The position numbers and the translations under genes were made by a program. Under the pieces are notes generated by a model. That model made no database searches. It saw nothing but the letters and a program-made list of their open reading frames with translations, and had not been told where the DNA came from. Positions 50,262 through 61,348 of a stretch of 64,000 nucleotides of DNA are shown here, piece by piece (positions within the stretch are counted from its first letter, which is position 1; every line of letters begins with the position of its first letter). The DNA lies in assembly GCA_963712115.1 (NCBI GenBank), contig CAVQGX010000011.1, positions 22,048 to 86,047 of the forward strand. Reading direction: 5' to 3'. The stretch is from an uncultured delta proteobacterium. GTDB lineage: Bacteria; Desulfobacterota; Syntrophobacteria; BM002.

Positions 50262-50404
50262 GTTAAATAGTAGATTAGTGAAATCGTTACAACCGTAGTA
50301 ATCGTTCAAATCGTTGAAGCCGTCCACCACCGAGGTCAGAAGTCGGAGATCAGAGATCAGCTTTACCCCGACCTCCGACATCTGATCTCTGACCTCTGAG
50401 TTCT
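50262..50404. repeat. Composite repeat; inverted copy at 52661-52831
   Basis: 73-bp self-hairpin block matches the reverse complement of 52661-52734 with one mismatch and one indel; AATCGTT units also shared. Confidence 0.85.
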
Positions 50405-50432
50405 TTCCGCTGACAGCTTCCTGCTCTAATGT

Positions 50433-52582: not shown

Positions 52583-52660
52583 ACCACCCACCGATCCATG
52601 GCATATAAACTATTCTTTCCCAGCTATTCTGTCACTAGAATGCAGGGGCTAGCAGCAGGC

Positions 52661-52831
52661 AGAACTCAGAGGTCAGAGATCAGATGTCGGAGGTCGTGGG
52701 TAAAGCTGATCTCTGATCTCTGACTTCTGACCTCTGCGATGGACGACTTCAACGATTTGAATGATTTCAACGCCTTTAACGATTTCCGCAAATTAAACGG
52801 TTGTAACGATTTGCCTAATAGACTGTTTAAC
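52661..52831. repeat. Composite repeat; inverted partner of 50262-50404
   Basis: TCAGAGG/TCTCTGA heptamer hairpin plus AACGATTT units. Confidence 0.85.
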
Positions 52832-54010: not shown

Positions 54011-54040
54011 TTGACAGTTCAGAGCGCGCCTCGCTATAAT
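54011..54040 (+). promoter_or_regulatory. Consensus sigma70 promoter of tRNA-Leu
   Basis: TTGACA-N18-TATAAT, 15 bp before the tRNA 5' end. Confidence 0.8.
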
Positions 54041-54055
54041 CACACCACCTAAATG

Positions 54056-54094
54056 GCCGGAGTGGTGAAACTGGTAGACGCGCTGGACTCAAAA
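54056..54094 (+). pseudogene. 5' half of tRNA-Leu(CAA), truncated after the anticodon loop (probable att junction)
   Basis: GCCGGAG TG GTGAAACTGGTAGAC GCG CTGGA CTCAAAA; no TCCAG, variable arm or T arm follows. Confidence 0.85.
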
Positions 54095-54115
54095 ACCAAA
54101 ACAGAGTAAAACGAT

Positions 54116-54271: not shown

Positions 54272-54354
54272 GCCCCGCTGCCGATGTCTTGACAACCCAC
54301 AAGATCATGTGGTGGAGTAAATTCTATCAAAGTGTGGAGTATGTAATTCACATT
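54272..54354. repeat. Right half of the 167-bp island unit (copy A, degenerate)
   Basis: CAAGAT box at the same spacing from AAAGTGTGG as in copy E; ends GTATG-TAATTCACATT. Confidence 0.6.
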
Positions 54355-54507
54355 TTAGCCAGACCAAGCCATAGTGGTGACCTAGGTGTGGGTCAGTATT
54401 TAGTTGAAAACTAGATACCTCCTAGGGGTCAGGCCAACTCTTAGCAGTTTTAGGGACGGCTGGTGTGGGGCCACACCCTCTGCGCTGGCCGTCCCTTTTC
54501 TTTGTCA

Positions 54508-54861
54508 TTAGTGTGCAGGCACTTCAAGCCTAACGTTATGCATCCACTTGTGTTGGTTGGGGTCATAGACGGAGCCTTCAAACATCATTTTTCCCGCAGC
54601 GGGCTTTTCGTACATTTTGCCCTGAAGCATGAACCCACGGTTGTCTATGACATTGACTTGTTGGGCTTCATTGTTGAGGCGGGCATGGTAGCAAAGTGCT
54701 TCAAAGTACCTATCGCAATCTTTGGGGGTTTTGCAATGGTATCTAGCTCTTGGGTCTGGCCTACAGTAGCGGGGATTCGTTGACTCGTTATAGACGTGTG
54801 TGCGTGTACAGGTGACAAAAAGGAACGGCAGGACGGCAAGAAAGGGCATAAGTTTTTTCAT
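54508..54861 (-). CDS. Hypothetical lipoprotein
   Basis: GGAGGG RBS, MKKL signal with lipobox-like FVTC, hairpin terminator at about 54452-54500. Confidence 0.7.
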   Translation of the reverse strand: MKKLMPFLAVLPFLFVTCTRTHVYNESTNPRYCRPDPRARYHCKTPKDCDRYFEALCYHARLNNEAQQVNVIDNRGFMLQGKMYEKPAAGKMMFEGSVYDPNQHKWMHNVRLEVPAH

Positions 54862-55009
54862 AAGAACCCTCCTTGGTGGGCAATGAATGCAGGAACTTAA
54901 TTTACTATAGCACAAGTGCGGTGAATTATGGGTGTGTGTAATTTAGGTGAGGGGGTTTGTGAACATAGAAAGGAGGTTTTGAGGATGCAAGAACAACGTA
55001 ACAGAAAAG

Positions 55010-55037
55010 AAATAAAAAGCAGAGCCGAAGCTCCGAC
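55010..55037 (-). terminator. Terminator after the 6S-like RNA
   Basis: Minus strand GGAGC-TTCG-GCTCT then a T-rich run. Confidence 0.55.
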
Positions 55038-55042
55038 AAAAG

Positions 55043-55220
55043 AACCCCTGCGGAGGTGGTGCTGGCAGACTGTCTTGAACCCTTCGTAACTAGATGAGGT
55101 CCCTGTTGGTCCTTTAGGCGCTTCGGGTTAACCGATGCGGCACACCGTTCCAAGGAAGGGTCCCCGTTTGTAAGTGTTGATTCAGAAAATATCTACCAAT
55201 CATCAAGACCGCAGGGGAAC
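55043..55220 (-). ncRNA. ssrS: 6S RNA homolog
   Basis: About 178 nt; closing stem CCCCTGCGG/CCGCAGGGG, CTGAATCAACAC..GGGTTCAAG around a central bubble, GGTGTGC..GCCTAAA terminal arm, paralleling E. coli 6S motifs (recalled, not searched). Confidence 0.78.
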
Positions 55221-55389
55221 CGAATCATAATAGAAAGTAGAATACCTTACCCTGTTCTTAACTATACTCTTATATAAATAAGATTACAGTAGCGATTCGG
55301 ATCCCGTCAATACGAAAAACCACCATTTCATAGATTAATCGGCTGGCTCAAAACGAGAAGTGCGGAATGTAGATTACATCACTTAATTT

Positions 55390-56739
55390 GGTTCTTCTCC
55401 CAATTAGTTGAAGAAAGCTTGATAGATTTTCAGCGTAAAGTAGCGTAAGTCATGATATCCGTAGGCTTTACGTTTGATGACTTTGATTTTGTTATTCACC
55501 CCTTCCAGCTTTCCGGTGTGGATAGGATAATCACAGTGATTGAGGATGCCGTATCGATATCGTTCTAGCATCCGGGCAAAGCCTGTCACCGATGGGTTAT
55601 TTAAGGACCGGGCCAGTTCGCACCAGTGATCAAGAGCCTTGCTAGCCCATGTCTTTGATCGATAGGTCCATATGTGTTTGAGTTTTTCCTTAAGAATCAT
55701 CACCGTATTGATGACTTCGTTTAACTCCAGCAGCTCTTTGAGTTGCTGTCGATGATTTCTGCGTCGCACGTTTTTGCGGTTTTTAAGCAGCAGGTACCTT
55801 GCACCTTTATAGACAGCCTTGTCCTGTTCGGAGGCCTTACGATATTCGCTGATTCTGACCTTATCGATAATCAGGTTAAAATTGGCCACGACGTGGAACA
55901 GATCGAAGACGATTTTAGCCTGAGGCAGTTTTTTTTAACGGCTTTGATATACGGGTCCCACATATCCATGACGATTGCCTCAATGGCTTTGCGCTGCTTG
56001 ACAGTCAACTTATTGAAAAACCTCTCCAGAGTTTTGGCCTTGCGCTCTTTGCCGACAAAGACCACGCGGCCACTCAGATAGTCCAGGACGACAGTCAAGT
56101 AGCGCTGACCTTTTCGGATGGAGATCTCGTCCACAGCCAAAAGGCGAAGCCCCTGGTAGTCGAGTTGACCATAATCGCGTTGCAAATAAAACTTGTCGAT
56201 GGCTTTAACCGTTTTCCAATTCAGGCCCAGGTGTCGAGCCACCTCGGATACGGTCATAAACTGGCACAGCTGATAGACATAAAGGGCCAATCGATTTGTC
56301 ATCCGAAGATAAGGGTGAAACAGCTCTAAATCCTCGATATGGATGCCTTGACAGTGAGCACAAAACACCTTGCGATATTGACAGGTGAGCCACAGCCGAG
56401 CACTGGCAAGGTGCAGATCCCGAACTTTGCGCCGACTCCAGCTGTGAACACCGCAAGCCCGCTTGCCGCATCCATGGCAGATGGGCTGAAAGCGCTTGTC
56501 CGGCTGTACCTGGATGTGAGCCTCGGTAGCCTCGGGTGTAACCGCCTGATTGACAATTTTGATTCGACGAAAAGGAAAATAAGCTGCTATAGTGGGCAAG
56601 GACATCGCAGGCCTCCTTTGTATAGGGTTTGTCTTGGTCGTTAAACCATATACTTCTAGGAGTTACCGGATGTCCATTCTGTTTTGATGAACCAGCCCAC
56701 TTTTACCTACTTTATATACAACTAATTGGGAGAAGAACC
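55390..56739 (-). mobile_element. ISL3-family insertion sequence
   Basis: 21-bp perfect IRs GGTTCTTCTCCCAATTAGTTG; 8-bp TSD CTTAATTT at 55382-55389 and 56740-56747. Confidence 0.95.
55404..56605 (-). pseudogene. ISL3 transposase, frameshifted in an A8 run near 55930
   Basis: Zn finger CHGC/CAHC, AVDE, MDMW, then VFDLFHV and LEGVNNKIK..KR.AYG in the other frame. Confidence 0.88.
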
Positions 56740-57156
56740 CTTAATTTACACTTCCCTAAGATTTGCTCAGGCACAAGATGTTGAGAAGAAAAAAGCGGAG
56801 CCAAGGACTCCGCATTTTCTAAGTTTAAACCAAGATATTGTAGCTTGGTCTTAAGAGGAAAAGTGGGGATTAAAGTATGTAATTCACACTCCAGGGGCCA
56901 TTCTGAACTTCAGATAATCACGCTTACCCTATGCTGATGAAGACGCAGAGCAACTTGATGACCTTATATTCATAGATACACGTGTGCTGCACAAATTGAC
57001 TACTGCAGTAATTGATGGTGACTTATCTGTCGAAGAAGCAAAAGAATTACTATTTAGGAAGGGTGGAGTAGAATTTGATAGTACCGATTCAACCTATTGA
57101 CTCTTCTCATTTCATTGCGTCTAGCCCGCTCCTGGTAAACTGCACCTAGTAGTTAT

Positions 57157-57522
57157 TCAGACAGAAGTATTTGGCATGCTAGTCGTTCTGACGTGTTCGC
57201 CTGTTATGGTTGAGTCTGTCTCAATGCTTGAGACAACAGATACTACGATAACCAGGTTGTCACCAATTCTGATAACGTCACCATCTTCCAGCCGAACTGA
57301 TTCCACTCTTAGTCCGTTGACAATTGTTCCGTTCTTGCTTCCCTTGTCGGTGACAACTAATTTTTTCCCTTCTTTAGTGAAGCATGAATGGTGGCGGGAG
57401 ACGCTACTATCTCTGAGCACAATGTCATTTTCACGATCACGACCAACCGCCAGCGTGCGCTCATCCTGTGGAATGTACTCCTTCATTGTGAGGTTTTGGA
57501 ACTTCACTTCTAAGCGATACAT
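57157..57522 (-). CDS. Stand-alone FHA-domain protein
   Basis: VGR..ND, VSRHH, SKNGT.VNG, DGDVIRIG. Confidence 0.9.
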   Translation of the reverse strand: MYRLEVKFQNLTMKEYIPQDERTLAVGRDRENDIVLRDSSVSRHHSCFTKEGKKLVVTDKGSKNGTIVNGLRVESVRLEDGDVIRIGDNLVIVVSVVSSIETDSTITGEHVRTTSMPNTSV

Positions 57523-57689
57523 ACGGCACCCCCCATAGATTTGACCCATTGAACTTGCGAGGGGTATTCCAGTCTGCTCCGGCAGGAAGTAAACTGTAGG
57601 ACAGGAAAACAAAGCCCCTCGGTACGCCCAACAGAAGCCATCAGGGACCACAAACACGATACCATTTCAACTTTGGCTGCGCCAATCCG

Positions 57690-57935
57690 CTAGAATCGGA
57701 AAGGACCCTTCTTAGATCGCCATCGAGGTGTGAAAATAATTTGTTGCCCAGACGGCGGTGCAGTTCGCGAAGAAAATGAAAATGTATTTTCCACAGAAAC
57801 AAAGTTGGAATTGCAGCTGCTACAGAAATAATGTCTACTTAGTGGTATCATGCGCATCCATAAATTTCGCCTCATACGAACATCTGGTATGCTTTTGCAT
57901 TGAGGACAGGCTTCCCCGATAGTAAAGTTTGCCAT
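57690..57935 (-). CDS. Small Zn-ribbon protein
   Basis: CPQC...CSSC, AGGGG RBS. Confidence 0.6.
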   Translation of the reverse strand: MANFTIGEACPQCKSIPDVRMRRNLWMRMIPLSRHYFCSSCNSNFVSVENTFSFSSRTAPPSGQQIIFTPRWRSKKGPFRF

Positions 57936-58712
57936 TTTTGCACCCCTTGCCCTTATTTCTAAAAATGCGAAATAAGGTTAACAGCTCTGACCACGATATC
58001 CTAACACAACACTAGGAATAGCAAAAATCATGCTAAAGTGATGCTAATAAATAATATGGGTCATGACTAGAACAGCAATGGTAAATCGTGCTAAAAGTAG
58101 TCATGACGCGGAAAAACAAGTATGCAAAAGGTGCGAAACTTTCTGAGAGGAAATTTCGAGAGCTTATCAAGCTCTTCTCTGTCGATTTGGACGCCTCTCA
58201 GATTGCTAAAGTCACCGGACTCAACCGCAATACAGTCAACCGTTACCTCAAGGAAATTCGAAAGAGGATCGCTCAGCACTGTGAAGAACAATCACCCTTT
58301 TCTGGCGAAGTTGAGGTTGACGAGTCCTATTTCGGTGCCCGCCGCTTCAAAGGCCGAAGAGGCCGCGGGGCGGGTGGTAAAACGATTGTATTTGGCATTT
58401 TCCAACGAAATGGTAAAGTCTACACGGAAATTGTTCCTGACTGTAGAAGCAAGACCCTTCAGGCAGTTATCAGAGGCCGTGTGAGTGCTGATAGCGTTAT
58501 CCATTCCGATTACTGGCGTGGCTACAACGGCCTCGTTGACTTGGGTTACAAAAAACATTTTCGGGTTCAACATGCCACTGATCAGTTCGTTCAGGGCAAA
58601 TCTCATATCAACGGAATCGAAAGCTTTTGGGGTTATGCAAAAACTAGACTCTCTAAGTTCAGGGGTATGAGTAAATCCACCTTTTATCTGCACTTAAAGG
58701 AGTGCGAGTTTA

Positions 58713-59831
58713 TATATAGCGTCTTAAATAATTGCGCATAATCGACGCAAGGTTTCGTTGGGTTCGCGCCAGGACTCGAACTGATCGAATACGGTCTGCA
58801 CCAGATCATCCAAGAGGGGGAAGTAACGATTATGGGTGCGGAGCCGGCGCGTCAGCTTCCACACTCGTTCAATGGCGTTCAGTTCCGGGCTATAGGGAGG
58901 CAGAAAGTCCAGTCGGAGATGTTTACGATGTTTCTTCAGCCACGGCTGCAGAAGTTTGGCACGATGCCAGCGGGCATTATCCAAAACGACAACCATCTTG
59001 CGGCCCTTGCGGCGACGGCGCACCAGTTGTTGTAAGAAAGAAAGGAATGTCTCCGCATTGAACTTCTCAGCGCGACCGGTGGTCAGACGTCCGTCTGCCG
59101 TACAAACTGCACCAAATACTCCAACGTTTTTCCGTGTAGGTGCATGCAAAACCACAGGATCTACATCCTCTGGAGGTACCCACATTGTACAGCGCGAACC
59201 GTGTTGCTGGAAATGGCATTCGTCTTCGAACCACAGGTCAACGTCGTCTCTTCTGGCCAGGCGGCTGAGTTTTTTTATAATTTCGTTGCGCATGCGGATC
59301 GGCTTTGGCAATGAGGGGGCGCGGCTTGCGCCGGCGGAATCCCAACTGGTGGAACATGCGCTGGCATTGACGTAGCTTGAGCTCCACCCCGTAGATCTGA
59401 GCTAAGTGATGACTGAGAAGCTTTCCGTCCCACAGGTTCTGAGTATAACCAAACTCAAAAGGCGAACGGCGAAGATCTTTGCCAACGTCTTGAAACAGAG
59501 CTTCGCTCAGCACTGGTGGACGTCCACAACGGGGAACCTCCTCAAGTCCTGCAAAACCGCTCTGCTCAAAACGGCGCACCCAGTACTGAATCGTGCGTCG
59601 ACTGCGCCCGAAGAGCTCTGCCACCTCGGAACAACTGAAGCCGCTGCAGACCAAAAGTATGCCATGCAGGCGATGGTCATATCGCGACTCCTCGGATCGC
59701 AGAATTTCATCTTGTACTGCCAGTCGAATGATCTCTGCATCTTTGATCTCAAGCTTGCGCATGGCCCCCTCCTTCCGGTATCTACTATACCAGAAGGCAG
59801 TATTATGCGCAATTAGTTATGACGCTATATA
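58713..59831 (-). mobile_element. IS630-family insertion sequence
   Basis: 30-bp IRs with 2 mismatches (TATATAGCGTC..AATTGCGCATAAT); TA duplication. Confidence 0.94.
58724..59762 (-). CDS. IS630 transposase, two ORFs joined by a probable -1 frameshift
   Basis: HTH ORF 59238..59762 and DDE ORF (FEDE, LDNA, LPPYSPELNAIE); A7 slippery run at about 59271-59277. Confidence 0.88.
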
Positions 59832-60067
59832 TAGATTCAACCATAGAGGTGAAAATCTCTCGGCAATCCTACTTAAGATGTGCAGAAAGTACCCGCTGTT
59901 CTAGTCATGACCCAATAATATTTATCATTAGTAAAAATAATAAAGAAGTCTTCACAGTACAATACTACCTTTGATTCCTTACAACCACGGAGAGAGTGAG
60001 GCAGGCAGTACGGGGGGGTGATTGGATATAAGATCAAGTAATCTAAACTCGCCTCGACCAAGGCAAA

Positions 60068-60234
60068 AGTTTAGATTACATCCCTTAATTCACACTCTGC
60101 TGAGATTTGCTCAGGCACAAGATGTTGACAACAAAAAAGCGGAGCCAAGAACTCCGCATCTTCTTAGTTTAAACCAAGATATTGTAGTTTGGTCTCAAGA
60201 TGAAAAGTGTGGATTAAATTATGTAATCAAACTT
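60068..60234. repeat. 167-bp island unit, copy E (intact)
   Basis: AGTTTAGATTA-CATCCCT-TAATTCACACT, 109 bp, AGTGTGGATTA-AATTATG-TAATCAAACTT. Confidence 0.88.
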
Positions 60235-60356
60235 TCAGCAGGCCGTTGAGGACTTTAGATCAAAATGTTACGGCATAGGCAAAGAAAAAAGTAGAGTCAG
60301 CTATGACTCTACCTTCGCGGAGAGTTTGTCTCAAAACCGCCTCACTACAGCAAGAA

Positions 60357-60884
60357 TCACTTGGAAGGAACGGTATAGGTTGCAGTGCCATCAATGACGG
60401 CGTCGCCTTTGGTTTCATCCTTGGTGTAGGGCGTGACGTACTTGCCAATGAAGGAGGACTTGCCCGTAATTCCCTCAAAGCGACCAGTCCCTTTTATGTA
60501 TTTACCCTCGCCCTTTATTGTGCGCATCTTTTCACCGGGAGCCAACGTCAAAGTGCCTGTATACTCAAGTATCGATGTGGAACCGTCCTCATAGAGAATG
60601 TCACTGTACCCATGAAACGAGCCTTGATCTTTGATATTATCAGGCGTACCCCGGGTGAGATAGGCTGCGGTTTCGCCATTTTCAAAGATAATCACACCTC
60701 TCCTCTCATACAGGACGAGCACGTGGTTTTCCACGTCCGGAACAGCAATCCATTCCACCCTAGTCAGGGGGGCGCAGATTTTATACTTCACAGTGTCTGC
60801 CTCGGCCTGTGTGGCAGGCAACAAAAGCAAAGCTGCGATGAGCAGAATGCCTATGATTCCCCAATTCCTTTTGATTGTAGTCAT
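60357..60884 (-). CDS. Exported beta-rich hypothetical protein
   Basis: GGGAGG RBS, signal peptide ending AEA, GTGRFEG.TG motif reminiscent of AOC/dirigent-like barrels. Confidence 0.7.
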   Translation of the reverse strand: MTTIKRNWGIIGILLIAALLLLPATQAEADTVKYKICAPLTRVEWIAVPDVENHVLVLYERRGVIIFENGETAAYLTRGTPDNIKDQGSFHGYSDILYEDGSTSILEYTGTLTLAPGEKMRTIKGEGKYIKGTGRFEGITGKSSFIGKYVTPYTKDETKGDAVIDGTATYTVPSK

Positions 60885-61256
60885 GACTGTTCCCTCCCCT
60901 AGTTTCACAGTTAATGATCCACGTTACGGAGTAGCTTTTTCTAGCCAAGGTGGTTTGGCTTTTCAGACGCAAACCAAAATACGAAAGCCTCCAAAGAGCA
61001 TGAGAACCCGTTGGAGATCTCATATCGGCATCTTCTGTAACGCCCTCCACATGACTTTCTCCAGAAGTCAGAAGACAGTGCCTGCGATGGGTGCGTTGAT
61101 AGTCTGGGCAGAAGAGGATAGAACTAAAGGTATGGTCTCTTGAGGATTCGTTGGAAAAGGATATCGAGCTAATTTCAGATTAGGTTACATGGGGGGTTGT
61201 GTCAAGAAAAACCGCAATACCAAAATGGTGTGCTCAGCCACAAAGGGAAAGGGTCA

Positions 61257-61348
61257 AGTATAGATTACATCCCTTAATTCACACTTTTCTGAAATTCAAT
61301 CTGGCACAAGATGCTGAGAGTATAAACAAGCGAAGCCGAAGCCCCGCT
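61257..61348. repeat. Left half of the 167-bp island unit (copy G)
   Basis: AGTATAGATTA-CATCCCT-TAATTCACACT, GGCACAAGATGCTGA, diverged central hairpin. Confidence 0.8.

Follow-up and report, generated by a model that had tools for sequence, protein, structure and literature searches.

Integrons are the textbook gene-shuffling device of bacteria, and dif modules, a second such device, are known almost only from Acinetobacter plasmids. In the relevant parts of two reports on the latter (PMC13141974, PMC11705084), modules bounded by pdif sites reassort through crossovers inside the sites, and the identity of the spacer decides which sites recombine. The sites at the two ends of a segment can have inverse orientation, and pairs that can be excised lie between direct repeats of the site. 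Replacement of a single dif module via a cointegrate is also described in a part of one of them (PMC13141974). Here we analyze a 64,000-bp stretch of DNA (hereafter, the window) from the genome of an uncultured sediment bacterium of the Desulfobacterota, in which a family of short palindromic sites, named here T sites, punctuates an array of unrelated genes. In the portions of the published literature that were available, no description of such T-site arrays was found, and dif modules were reported only from Acinetobacter.

On balance, we regard it as somewhat more likely than not that T sites are double-stranded core sites of a tyrosine recombinase and form a lineage-specific gene-cassette system that is most likely run by a small recombinase of 278 amino acids. 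A previous reading of the window, made from its letters alone (the sequence-only reading), had proposed an integron-like cassette array with foldable double sites, served by XerCD or another tyrosine recombinase. Below, the analyzed genome is G000 and the window is G000:C11:22048-86047, which reaches the contig end; G-numbers denote compared genomes, C-numbers their contigs, and L-numbers metagenome contigs or loci.

Structure, abundance and distribution of the T sites

T sites are 29 bases long and consist of two 11-bp arms around a 7-bp spacer (11-7-11), and their spacers fall into two classes, T1 (CATCCCT) and T2 (CATACTT). A position weight matrix (PWM) built from 90 core matches detected 148 sites in G000 at a score of at least 19, including 96 T1 and 50 T2 sites. 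The separation from the background is clean: among 9.8 million positions, 146 sites score at least 20 and only 167 score at least 10. The motif ATTA-N7-TAAT occurs 169 times in the genome, compared with 43-96 occurrences at spacings of 3-6 and 8-11, and paired arms were found in 45 cases at the 7-bp spacing and in 0-1 cases at spacings of 0-6, 8 and 9. These repeats are genuine and greatly exceed chance expectation.

The inner arm of the sites is nearly invariant, and the outer arm is variable, retaining only the pattern A.TkTr.ATTA. Besides the site itself, approximately 32 nt adjoining the inner arm are conserved, whereas on the other side conservation ends with the outer arm. T1 and T2 sites face each other at a distance of 82 or 138-139 bp start to start, thus forming units of 111 or 167 bp, and every unit found (20 of 20) combines one T1 with one T2 site. 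An inverted partner within 330 bp is present for only about 40 of the 148 sites, and lone T1 sites are more numerous than units.

The 54.3-61.3 kb region of the window contains two 167-bp units and one lone site, all belonging to one family (Table 1). The two full units with inverted 11-7-11 sites 109 bp apart, described by the sequence-only reading, were both recovered: unit C, split by an ISL3-family insertion sequence (IS), and the intact unit E. These units are 90% identical (repeat family D1), with a site spacing in unit C of 138 bp start to start once the IS is removed. Two half units had also been described. The one at 61257-61348 is a strong lone T1 site, whereas that at 54272-54354 does contain a T2-type end, but a degenerate one. 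This end resembles the right end of the unit, a similarity also seen, in contigs of public sequencing runs, as a joint that goes back. Two further lone sites, assigned near 54918 and 60039, had to be dismissed as weak: the latter is a single arm, and the former has the wrong spacing and a PWM score below 14.

It had further been suggested that the units recombine as folded single strands. In our comparison, the two sites of a unit agree in 3.70 of the 7 variable outer-arm positions, versus 3.71 +/- 0.24 after shuffling of the partners, and the majority of sites lack a partner. Since the outer arms of partners do not covary, the folded-strand mechanism is not supported.

T sites were found in all 17 other genomes of the genus and in the single genome of the sister genus, and in none of 103 other genomes of the class. 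The number of sites in individual genomes varies, for instance 7 in G013, 22 in G002, and 56 in G009; in the closed G002, approximately half of them occur as scattered single sites.

The sites may also attract mobile elements. Two loci whose outer flanks differ (C11:77413 and C5:20496) have ISL3 inserted at the identical position of the T1 inner arm, and three to four copies of an IS110-family element adjoin this arm of T1 sites (C36:19664, C41:2011, C42:18344 and C48:12565). Insertion sequences thus seem, from these positions, to target T1 sites. The abutment of the IS110-family element recalls IS1111-type elements that target attC sites of integrons.

Organization of the arrays and their cargo

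The T sites are clustered: 109 of 116 gaps between sites do not exceed 7 kb, with a median of 1394 bp. The arrays are polar, as 105 of 109 neighboring site pairs are consistent in orientation; the T1 sites of an array share one direction, and its T2 sites have the opposite one. Open reading frames (ORFs) of at least 80 amino acids follow the same polarity, with 113 on the strand opposite to T1 versus 29. In the direction of the genes, the layout of an array is a gene, an optional T2 site located 3' of that gene, a short linker, frequently with an intrinsic terminator, an inverted T1 site, and the next gene. The long linker contains an intrinsic-terminator hairpin with a T-run on the cargo strand.

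The cargo is diverse and includes response regulators, PilZ, OmpA, PKD, GNAT, GATase, SMR, LysM, FHA, caspase-TPR and NlpC/P60 proteins, an aminotransferase, a FabH-like protein, and a cyclase-TPR protein. The cargo genes are complete and mutually unrelated. The closed 3.2-Mb chromosome of G002 contains arrays, as do contigs that reach 358 kb in length, and arrays recur throughout the genome and the genus with varied cargo order. The claims that the sites punctuate arrays of unrelated cargo and that intact cargo genes of the window lie on the minus strand both stand. The cargo identities given by the sequence-only reading were accurate in part: the FHA gene was verified, whereas the zinc ribbon is only a weak, sub-threshold match in a HIRAN protein, and the 6S RNA scores below the gathering threshold.

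The 6S-RNA-like gene of the window is one of five full-length copies in G000, all of which score below gathering (30-40 bits against 46.4); the canonical 6S gene, located at C2:41852, scores 81 bits. The copies on C11, C18 and C46 lie within approximately 150 bp of a T1 site, and the copy on C44 is about 1 kb away from one. A 6S-like element is also present within an array of G002. Judging from these positions, the 6S-like RNA seems to travel as a cassette.

The ortholog of the left flank of the window in the closed G002 genome matches through the tRNA-Leu fragment that borders the array (Table 1). As no T site is listed near this place in G002, the position of the array is probably not conserved.

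Two other repeats were also observed. An element of 169-173 bp, found at G000:C12:21536-21704 and in at least 10 other places, lies inside some cassettes; it is 99% identical in at least 11 copies and looks like a recently active MITE (miniature inverted-repeat transposable element) of a different family. Tandem palindromic motifs of approximately 35 bp (TTACCCAAAA...GGGTAA) are located upstream of a conserved gene at G000:C33:108200-108380 (L146:1800-1880) and in G010:C10; their copy number differs between species, and they look like operator sites.

Recombination at the T sites

Pairwise comparison of the flanks of 147 sites flagged 114 pairs. At a sharing cut-off of 80%, 17 of these pairs share the outer flank only, 35 the inner flank only, 3 both flanks, and 59 neither. 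This reassortment of flanks at the sites points to site-specific recombination that shuffles modules. In alignments, identity passes through one arm and ends before the other, with the switch falling after outer-arm position 10 or 11 and before the inner arm. A 1263-bp segment common to C3 and C4 is 99.6% identical, and its homology ends in a T2 site at one side and in a T1 site at the other. The sites C3:116808 (T1) and C28:12324 (T2) have a common outer arm and outer flank and diverge from spacer position 4 onward; as their spacers belong to different classes, the crossover in this pair is placed between the outer arm and spacer position 4. Breakpoints thus fall inside the sites, in agreement with the breakpoints at sites predicted by the sequence-only reading. 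The same cassettes are also found next to other neighbors in different species: the GATase and FabH-like cassettes of G002 and G000 are 88% and 91% identical, respectively.

Other comparisons were less informative. At C33:108420, a block of approximately 2 kb is missing in G005, G015 and G009; the borders of this block are not at T sites, and thus the locus provides no clean insertion footprint. Comparison of the C37 locus yielded scattered repeat matches only. In public sequencing runs, all of them represented by Logan contigs, the fraction of sampled words present was no more than 0.26-0.37 even in the best matches. In contigs of four of these runs, the summed depth over the units was very high, and the flanks diverged at the outer arm.

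The observed organization bears on two further alternatives. The first is an inversion system of the shufflon or inverton type, in which a recombinase would invert T1-T2 segments and, by switching the terminators or promoters that the 111- and 167-bp units carry, control the neighboring genes. The units are indeed short segments with inverted sites at their ends and an orientation-dependent terminator inside, and a recombinase gene occurs within such an inverted-site segment (see below). The 7-bp spacer and the combination of one conserved and one variable arm recall the sites used by the R64 shufflon (sfx) and by Hin (hix). However, the nearly fixed orientation, with T2 on the 3' side of the gene, is not what inversion would produce, and the different spacers at the two ends of every unit should hinder T1 x T2 exchange. 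The cargo consists of complete unrelated genes rather than alternative gene ends, and inversion leaves the reassortment of flanks between loci unexplained. We therefore consider this alternative improbable.

The second alternative, which appears to us even less plausible and very improbable overall, is that the units are ordinary MITEs, non-autonomous transposons accumulated by chance in islands, or, in another version, that the sites are unusual attC sites of the integron of this genome. The units do have inverted ends of approximately 60 bp, and these terminal inverted repeats are common to a longer T1-recombinase-T2 element (observed in G006, G005 and metagenome contigs); the singly dispersed half of the G002 sites is also what MITEs would leave. 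The genome, furthermore, encodes a true IntI (487 bits, TIGR02249), so that the absence of IntI asserted earlier holds within the window but not for the genome. Yet the check for MITE-like insertion detected target-site duplications in 0 of 18 units at k = 2 to 8, and no empty palindromic targets were found; transposition into TA targets was likewise rejected. The sites are clustered and polar, lone T1 sites outnumber the units, and the 17 pairs sharing only the outer flank are not expected for MITEs. As for attC, IntI (C27:2350-3303) has its own classical attC sites at C27:1-2100, no IntI adjoins the T arrays, T sites occur in G002 and G013, which lack IntI, and the outer arms of partners do not covary. 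The classical integron itself occupies C27:1-3303 and comprises at least four cassettes with attC sites of approximately 120 bp of the TAAC...GTTA type, in an array that runs off the contig start.

A small tyrosine recombinase embedded in T sites

The best candidate for the enzyme is P0002, an Xer-like tyrosine recombinase of 278 amino acids encoded at G000:C3:1094-1927. In a search that covered 41 genomes, its family was found in G000, 6 of 17 other genomes of the genus, and the one genome of the sister genus, and in none of 22 genomes from 16 other genera. The protein is a tyrosine recombinase and not a DDE transposase, and its catalytic residues (R, K, H-x-x-R, H and Y) do not vary among 14 sequences. 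Homologs are very common in metagenomes (4260 at E <=1e-10), many of them on contigs of 1.0-1.2 kb.

The gene is embedded in T sites. In G006:C123, a T1 site is followed by 133 nt, the recombinase gene, 66 nt, and an inverted T2 site, with a total span of 1090 bp. G005 contains two such loci, one with both sites (C209) and one with T2 (C536). Among metagenome contigs with genes of 67-70% identity, T2 is located at +66 in L190 and L193, and T1 at -163 in L192. A second, more distant subfamily has a like architecture, with the inner arm CTGC[AT]ATGGAGC at -177 and +98 (L208, L213, L219, L226 and L239) and with sites that mostly retain the ATTA-CAT core. In the units, the flank next to T1 corresponds in sequence to the leader of the recombinase gene, and hence the 111- and 167-bp units can be read as gene-less derivatives of the T1-gene-T2 element.

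Several other candidates for the enzyme were rejected. The integrase neighboring the array, which the sequence-only reading had considered, belongs to a family of 411/415-aa proteins found in only 3 of 17 genomes of the genus and in four genera that lack the sites. Serine recombinases were sought in five genomes and found in none of them. Transposases associated with repetitive extragenic palindromes (RAYT/REP) were also considered: G000 has four Y1_Tnp matches, of which three are IS200-type genes, one of them inside the C48 array segment, and the only match of the longer type (C20:238180) is on a contig without a T site. Finally, a mobile integrative element that exploits Xer (IMEX) at dif was dismissed, as the contig C43 that bears dif has no T site.

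The remaining alternative is that T sites are extra Xer sites run by the host XerC and XerD, like the Acinetobacter dif modules, and that the small recombinase is cargo only. XerD would then bind the conserved inner arm and XerC the loose outer arm, with the first exchange made by XerC beside the outer arm, and modules would move by cointegration followed by resolution or by excision of pairs. This scheme stays a rival because G002 and G013, two closed genomes with T sites (including well-preserved arrays, present in G002), encode only an XerD-like protein of about 298 amino acids and an XerC-like protein of about 356 amino acids as tyrosine recombinases. The failure to find serine recombinases in the five genomes searched fits it as well, and the spacer classes as compatibility groups and the crossovers within sites match what is reported for pdif in part of PMC13141974.

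The host dif site provides a further comparison. This site, TAGTCTGATAA-TGTATA-TTATGTAAACT, is located at C43:75937 in G000 and is conserved across the family; at no more than 3 mismatches, there is one match in 13 of 17 genomes of the genus and two matches in 2 more (G002 and G016), where the central region of the second match is different. The resemblance of the T arms to dif arms, proposed earlier, holds for the right arm of dif, which matches both T arms (among genomic 11-mers it ranks in the top 6e-5 by the outer-arm PWM and in the top 5e-4 by the inner-arm PWM), but not for the left, XerC-type arm, which resembles neither (fractions 0.08 and 0.24). The similarity of both T arms to each other suggests that one protein binds both, which counts against XerCD. 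Also in conflict with this scheme are the 7-bp spacer instead of 6 bp, the restriction of T sites to one genus and its sister although genera without T sites have the same dif sequence, and the clade-matched recombinase embedded within the sites. Taking both sides together, we consider service by XerCD a possible but unlikely explanation, and the dedicated small tyrosine recombinase a better candidate.

A second dif-like site with dif arms and the central region TTAATC was observed at G000:C49:23172, at G002:C1:280948 (8.6 kb from dif), and at G016:C48:5156. It may be a scar of an element integrated at dif.

A number of observations weigh against the small recombinase as the enzyme of a cassette-exchange system. 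Its distribution is patchy: it was found in only 7 of 18 genomes of the genus, and not in G009 despite the 56 sites of this genome, and it is absent from the closed G002 and G013. Many of the genomes are fragmented metagenome-assembled genomes, in which non-detection of the gene does not show its absence. No T site was detectable by PWM near the copy of G000 itself (C3:1-3427 was searched); in our reading, the subgroup to which this copy belongs appears to retain only arm-like and spacer-like remnants in its flanks. Between the locus of this copy and that of G018, homology is limited to about 1.04 kb around the gene, and on the right it extends approximately 17-36 nt past a guessed site-like motif. 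An inverted repeat of at least 17/22 surrounds the gene in only 8 of 42 metagenome loci of distant homologs with enough flank, and the recombinase gene could be just another passenger inserted in a unit, as the IS elements are. Two further points concern the exchange reaction. Neither an excision circle nor its junction was seen in contigs of four public runs, in which the T-site joints had sides of only 20-25 letters. Moreover, inverted sites cannot excise the segment between them, so that movement of a single inner segment needs a two-step exchange, of which no instance was observed.

Proposed mechanism and implications

With the small recombinase as the enzyme, the exchange can be outlined as follows. 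The T1 and T2 spacer classes should not recombine with each other, and each crossover would occur at the junction of the outer arm and the spacer. Recombination of T1 with T1 between direct repeats would excise a cassette as a circle, and the reverse reaction would integrate it. Paired T1 x T1 and T2 x T2 events would let two molecules trade a segment in the manner of recombinase-mediated cassette exchange, and a segment flanked by T1 and T2 would keep its orientation during the exchange. The cointegrate route described for the replacement of single dif modules (PMC13141974) follows this logic as well. The 1.09-kb T1-recombinase-T2 element would have given rise to the gene-less units of 111 and 167 bp.

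A broader proposal, in which we place about even confidence, is that this is a third bacterial cassette platform, additional to integrons and dif modules: a small Cre-like recombinase encoded by the system itself, together with two natural heterospecific double-stranded sites, would capture, excise and exchange single-gene cassettes in polar chromosomal arrays. In such a platform, each cassette would end in its own terminator, the recombinase gene would travel as a module, and RNA genes, such as the 6S-like one, could be cassettes.

The chromosomes of abundant relatives of sediment sulfate reducers would then have a system that does a job comparable to that of integrons and dif modules with another site and probably another, very small recombinase. 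If this is true, cassette platforms evolved more than once. The system would be a natural and tractable case of heterospecific-site exchange, and the 278-aa recombinase, together with two orthogonal classes of 29-bp sites, could serve genome engineering. It also raises the question, familiar from integrons, of how a gene acquires its site, for which the sites described here are simpler to analyze.

Features of the window

The features of the array region and its borders are listed in Table 1. The ISL3 element in unit C has inverted repeats at 55390-55410 and 56719-56739 and is flanked by the 8-bp duplication CTTAATTT. The interior of unit C contains a terminator hairpin on the minus strand (56813-56795), and that of unit E an intrinsic terminator on the cargo strand (60157-60139); a further terminator-like hairpin lies beside the 6S-RNA-like cargo gene (55035-55020). 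The T1 site of unit E reads AGTTTAGATTA-CATCCCT-TAATTCACACT.

Table 1. Features of the T-site array and adjacent loci. Positions are those of the window unless a contig of G000 is named.
Feature	Position	Strand	Remarks
tRNA-Leu-like gene, 5' half	54040..54095	+	ends after anticodon loop; read in the sequence, ARAGORN calls no tRNA in the window
Degenerate T2-type end	54326..54354	-	~5 bp deleted from one arm; below PWM threshold; distal array end
Cargo ORF, 135 aa	54508..54915	-	no Pfam family
6S-RNA-like cargo gene	55041..55220	-	RF00013, 32.7 bits, E 8.8e-4, full model length; gathering 46.4
Unit C, T1 site, left part	55366..55389	+	AATGTAGATTA-CATCACT-TAATTT; interrupted by ISL3 insertion
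ISL3-family IS, frameshifted transposase	55390..56739	-	within T1 inner arm; Pfam DDE_Tnp_ISL3
Unit C, remainder	56748..56890	+	T1 inner-arm end, 109-bp interior, inverted T2 site 56862-56890
FHA-domain cargo gene	57157..57657	-	Pfam FHA, 1.8e-20
IS1595-family element split by IS630-like element (58706-59838)	58057..59914	+	Pfam DDE_Tnp_IS1595 and DDE_3, inverted repeats
Unit E, intact long unit	60068..60234	+	T1 60068-60096, 109 bp, inverted T2 60206-60234 (spacer CATAATT)
Cargo ORF, 183 aa	60357..60908	-	no Pfam family
Lone T1 site (61257-61285), conserved inner flank and hairpin (61348-61329, minus strand)	61257..61348	+	PWM 45.9; repeat family D2
Tyrosine integrase, ~415 aa	62710..63954	+	N-terminal zinc ribbon; broken by one TAA codon
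Other 6S-RNA-like copies	C44:13967-14144; C18:1992-2171; C46:149003-149182; C4:57-236		

The IS1595-family and IS630-like elements are an insertion into a cargo segment and are outside the cassette system. Contigs of three public runs join 58710 to 59832; hence, the outer IS1595 element exists without the inner IS.

The tRNA-Leu fragment matches G002, G016 and G007 at 87-92%, and the left flank of the window is syntenic across the genus; the fragment marks the left border of the island that bears the array. Taken together with this truncated tRNA-Leu gene, the broken integrase appears to belong to the array-bearing island as its integrase.

At the other end, approximately 250 bp at 60975-61250, adjoining the outer arm of the lone T1 site and located 5' of the 183-aa cargo gene, are 70-95% conserved in nine other genomes of the genus. 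The relatives of this segment in G007, G011 and G005, for which positions were cross-checked, also adjoin a T1 site, and the 183-aa gene itself has only weak relatives there. By eye, the segment holds a promoter-like motif, TTGACA-17-TAATCT. Another palindromic repeat of approximately 130 bp, unrelated to T sites, occurs in the window at 50279-50430 and 52650-52790, in dozens of copies in the genome, and throughout the genus.

Comparison with known systems

Like integrons, the T-site arrays are composed of co-oriented, short, mostly single-gene cassettes that are functionally unrelated, each gene being followed by a repeat on its 3' side; the arrays may stand without a nearby recombinase, as do clusters of attC sites lacking integron-integrases (CALIN), and the repeat seems to be a target of insertion sequences. 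In contrast to integrons, there is no IntI beside the arrays, no attI or common promoter was identified, and no evidence points to folded single strands. The T sites contain no RYYYAAC/GTTRRRY cores, as the sequence-only reading had noted, and the true integron of the genome is a separate locus.

The Acinetobacter dif modules are similar in having many dif-like double-stranded sites that bound small gene modules, reassortment with crossovers inside the sites, spacers that would define which sites are compatible, and segments with inversely oriented sites at their ends. The differences are as follows: (i) the T-site spacer is 7 bp, compared with 6 bp in the 28-bp dif-module site, and both T arms resemble one dif arm, (ii) approximately 150 sites are located on the chromosome of an uncultured Desulfobacterota genus and not on Rep_3/OrfX plasmids, (iii) the arrays have strong polarity, with a site 3' of each gene, built-in terminators, and about 32 bp of conserved inner flank, and (iv) a dedicated small recombinase lies within the sites.

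The R64 shufflon (Rci, sfx) shares the 7-bp spacer, one conserved and one variable arm, and many copies of the site within one locus. However, the shufflon inverts alternative ends of one gene, whereas the T-site arrays hold complete unrelated cargo in fixed orientation, with flanks reassorted between loci. The attP of CTX phage has two inverted dif-like sites approximately 100 bp apart and was likened to the units described here; unlike CTX-phage attP and IMEX, the T-site arrays are away from dif, the outer arms of the units are unpaired, and most sites stand alone.

Like the proposed T-site system, Cre/lox-type systems and recombinase-mediated cassette exchange rely on a small recombinase without an arm-binding domain and on a palindromic core beside its gene. 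The two heterospecific spacer classes of T sites resemble engineered pairs of lox variants; here, however, the heterospecific pair is natural, is present in approximately 150 copies, organizes chromosomal cargo, and has an 11-7-11 geometry in place of 13-8-13. The nearest known system is the Acinetobacter dif modules, the layout of the arrays is integron-like, and the logic of enzyme and site resembles that of Cre/lox.

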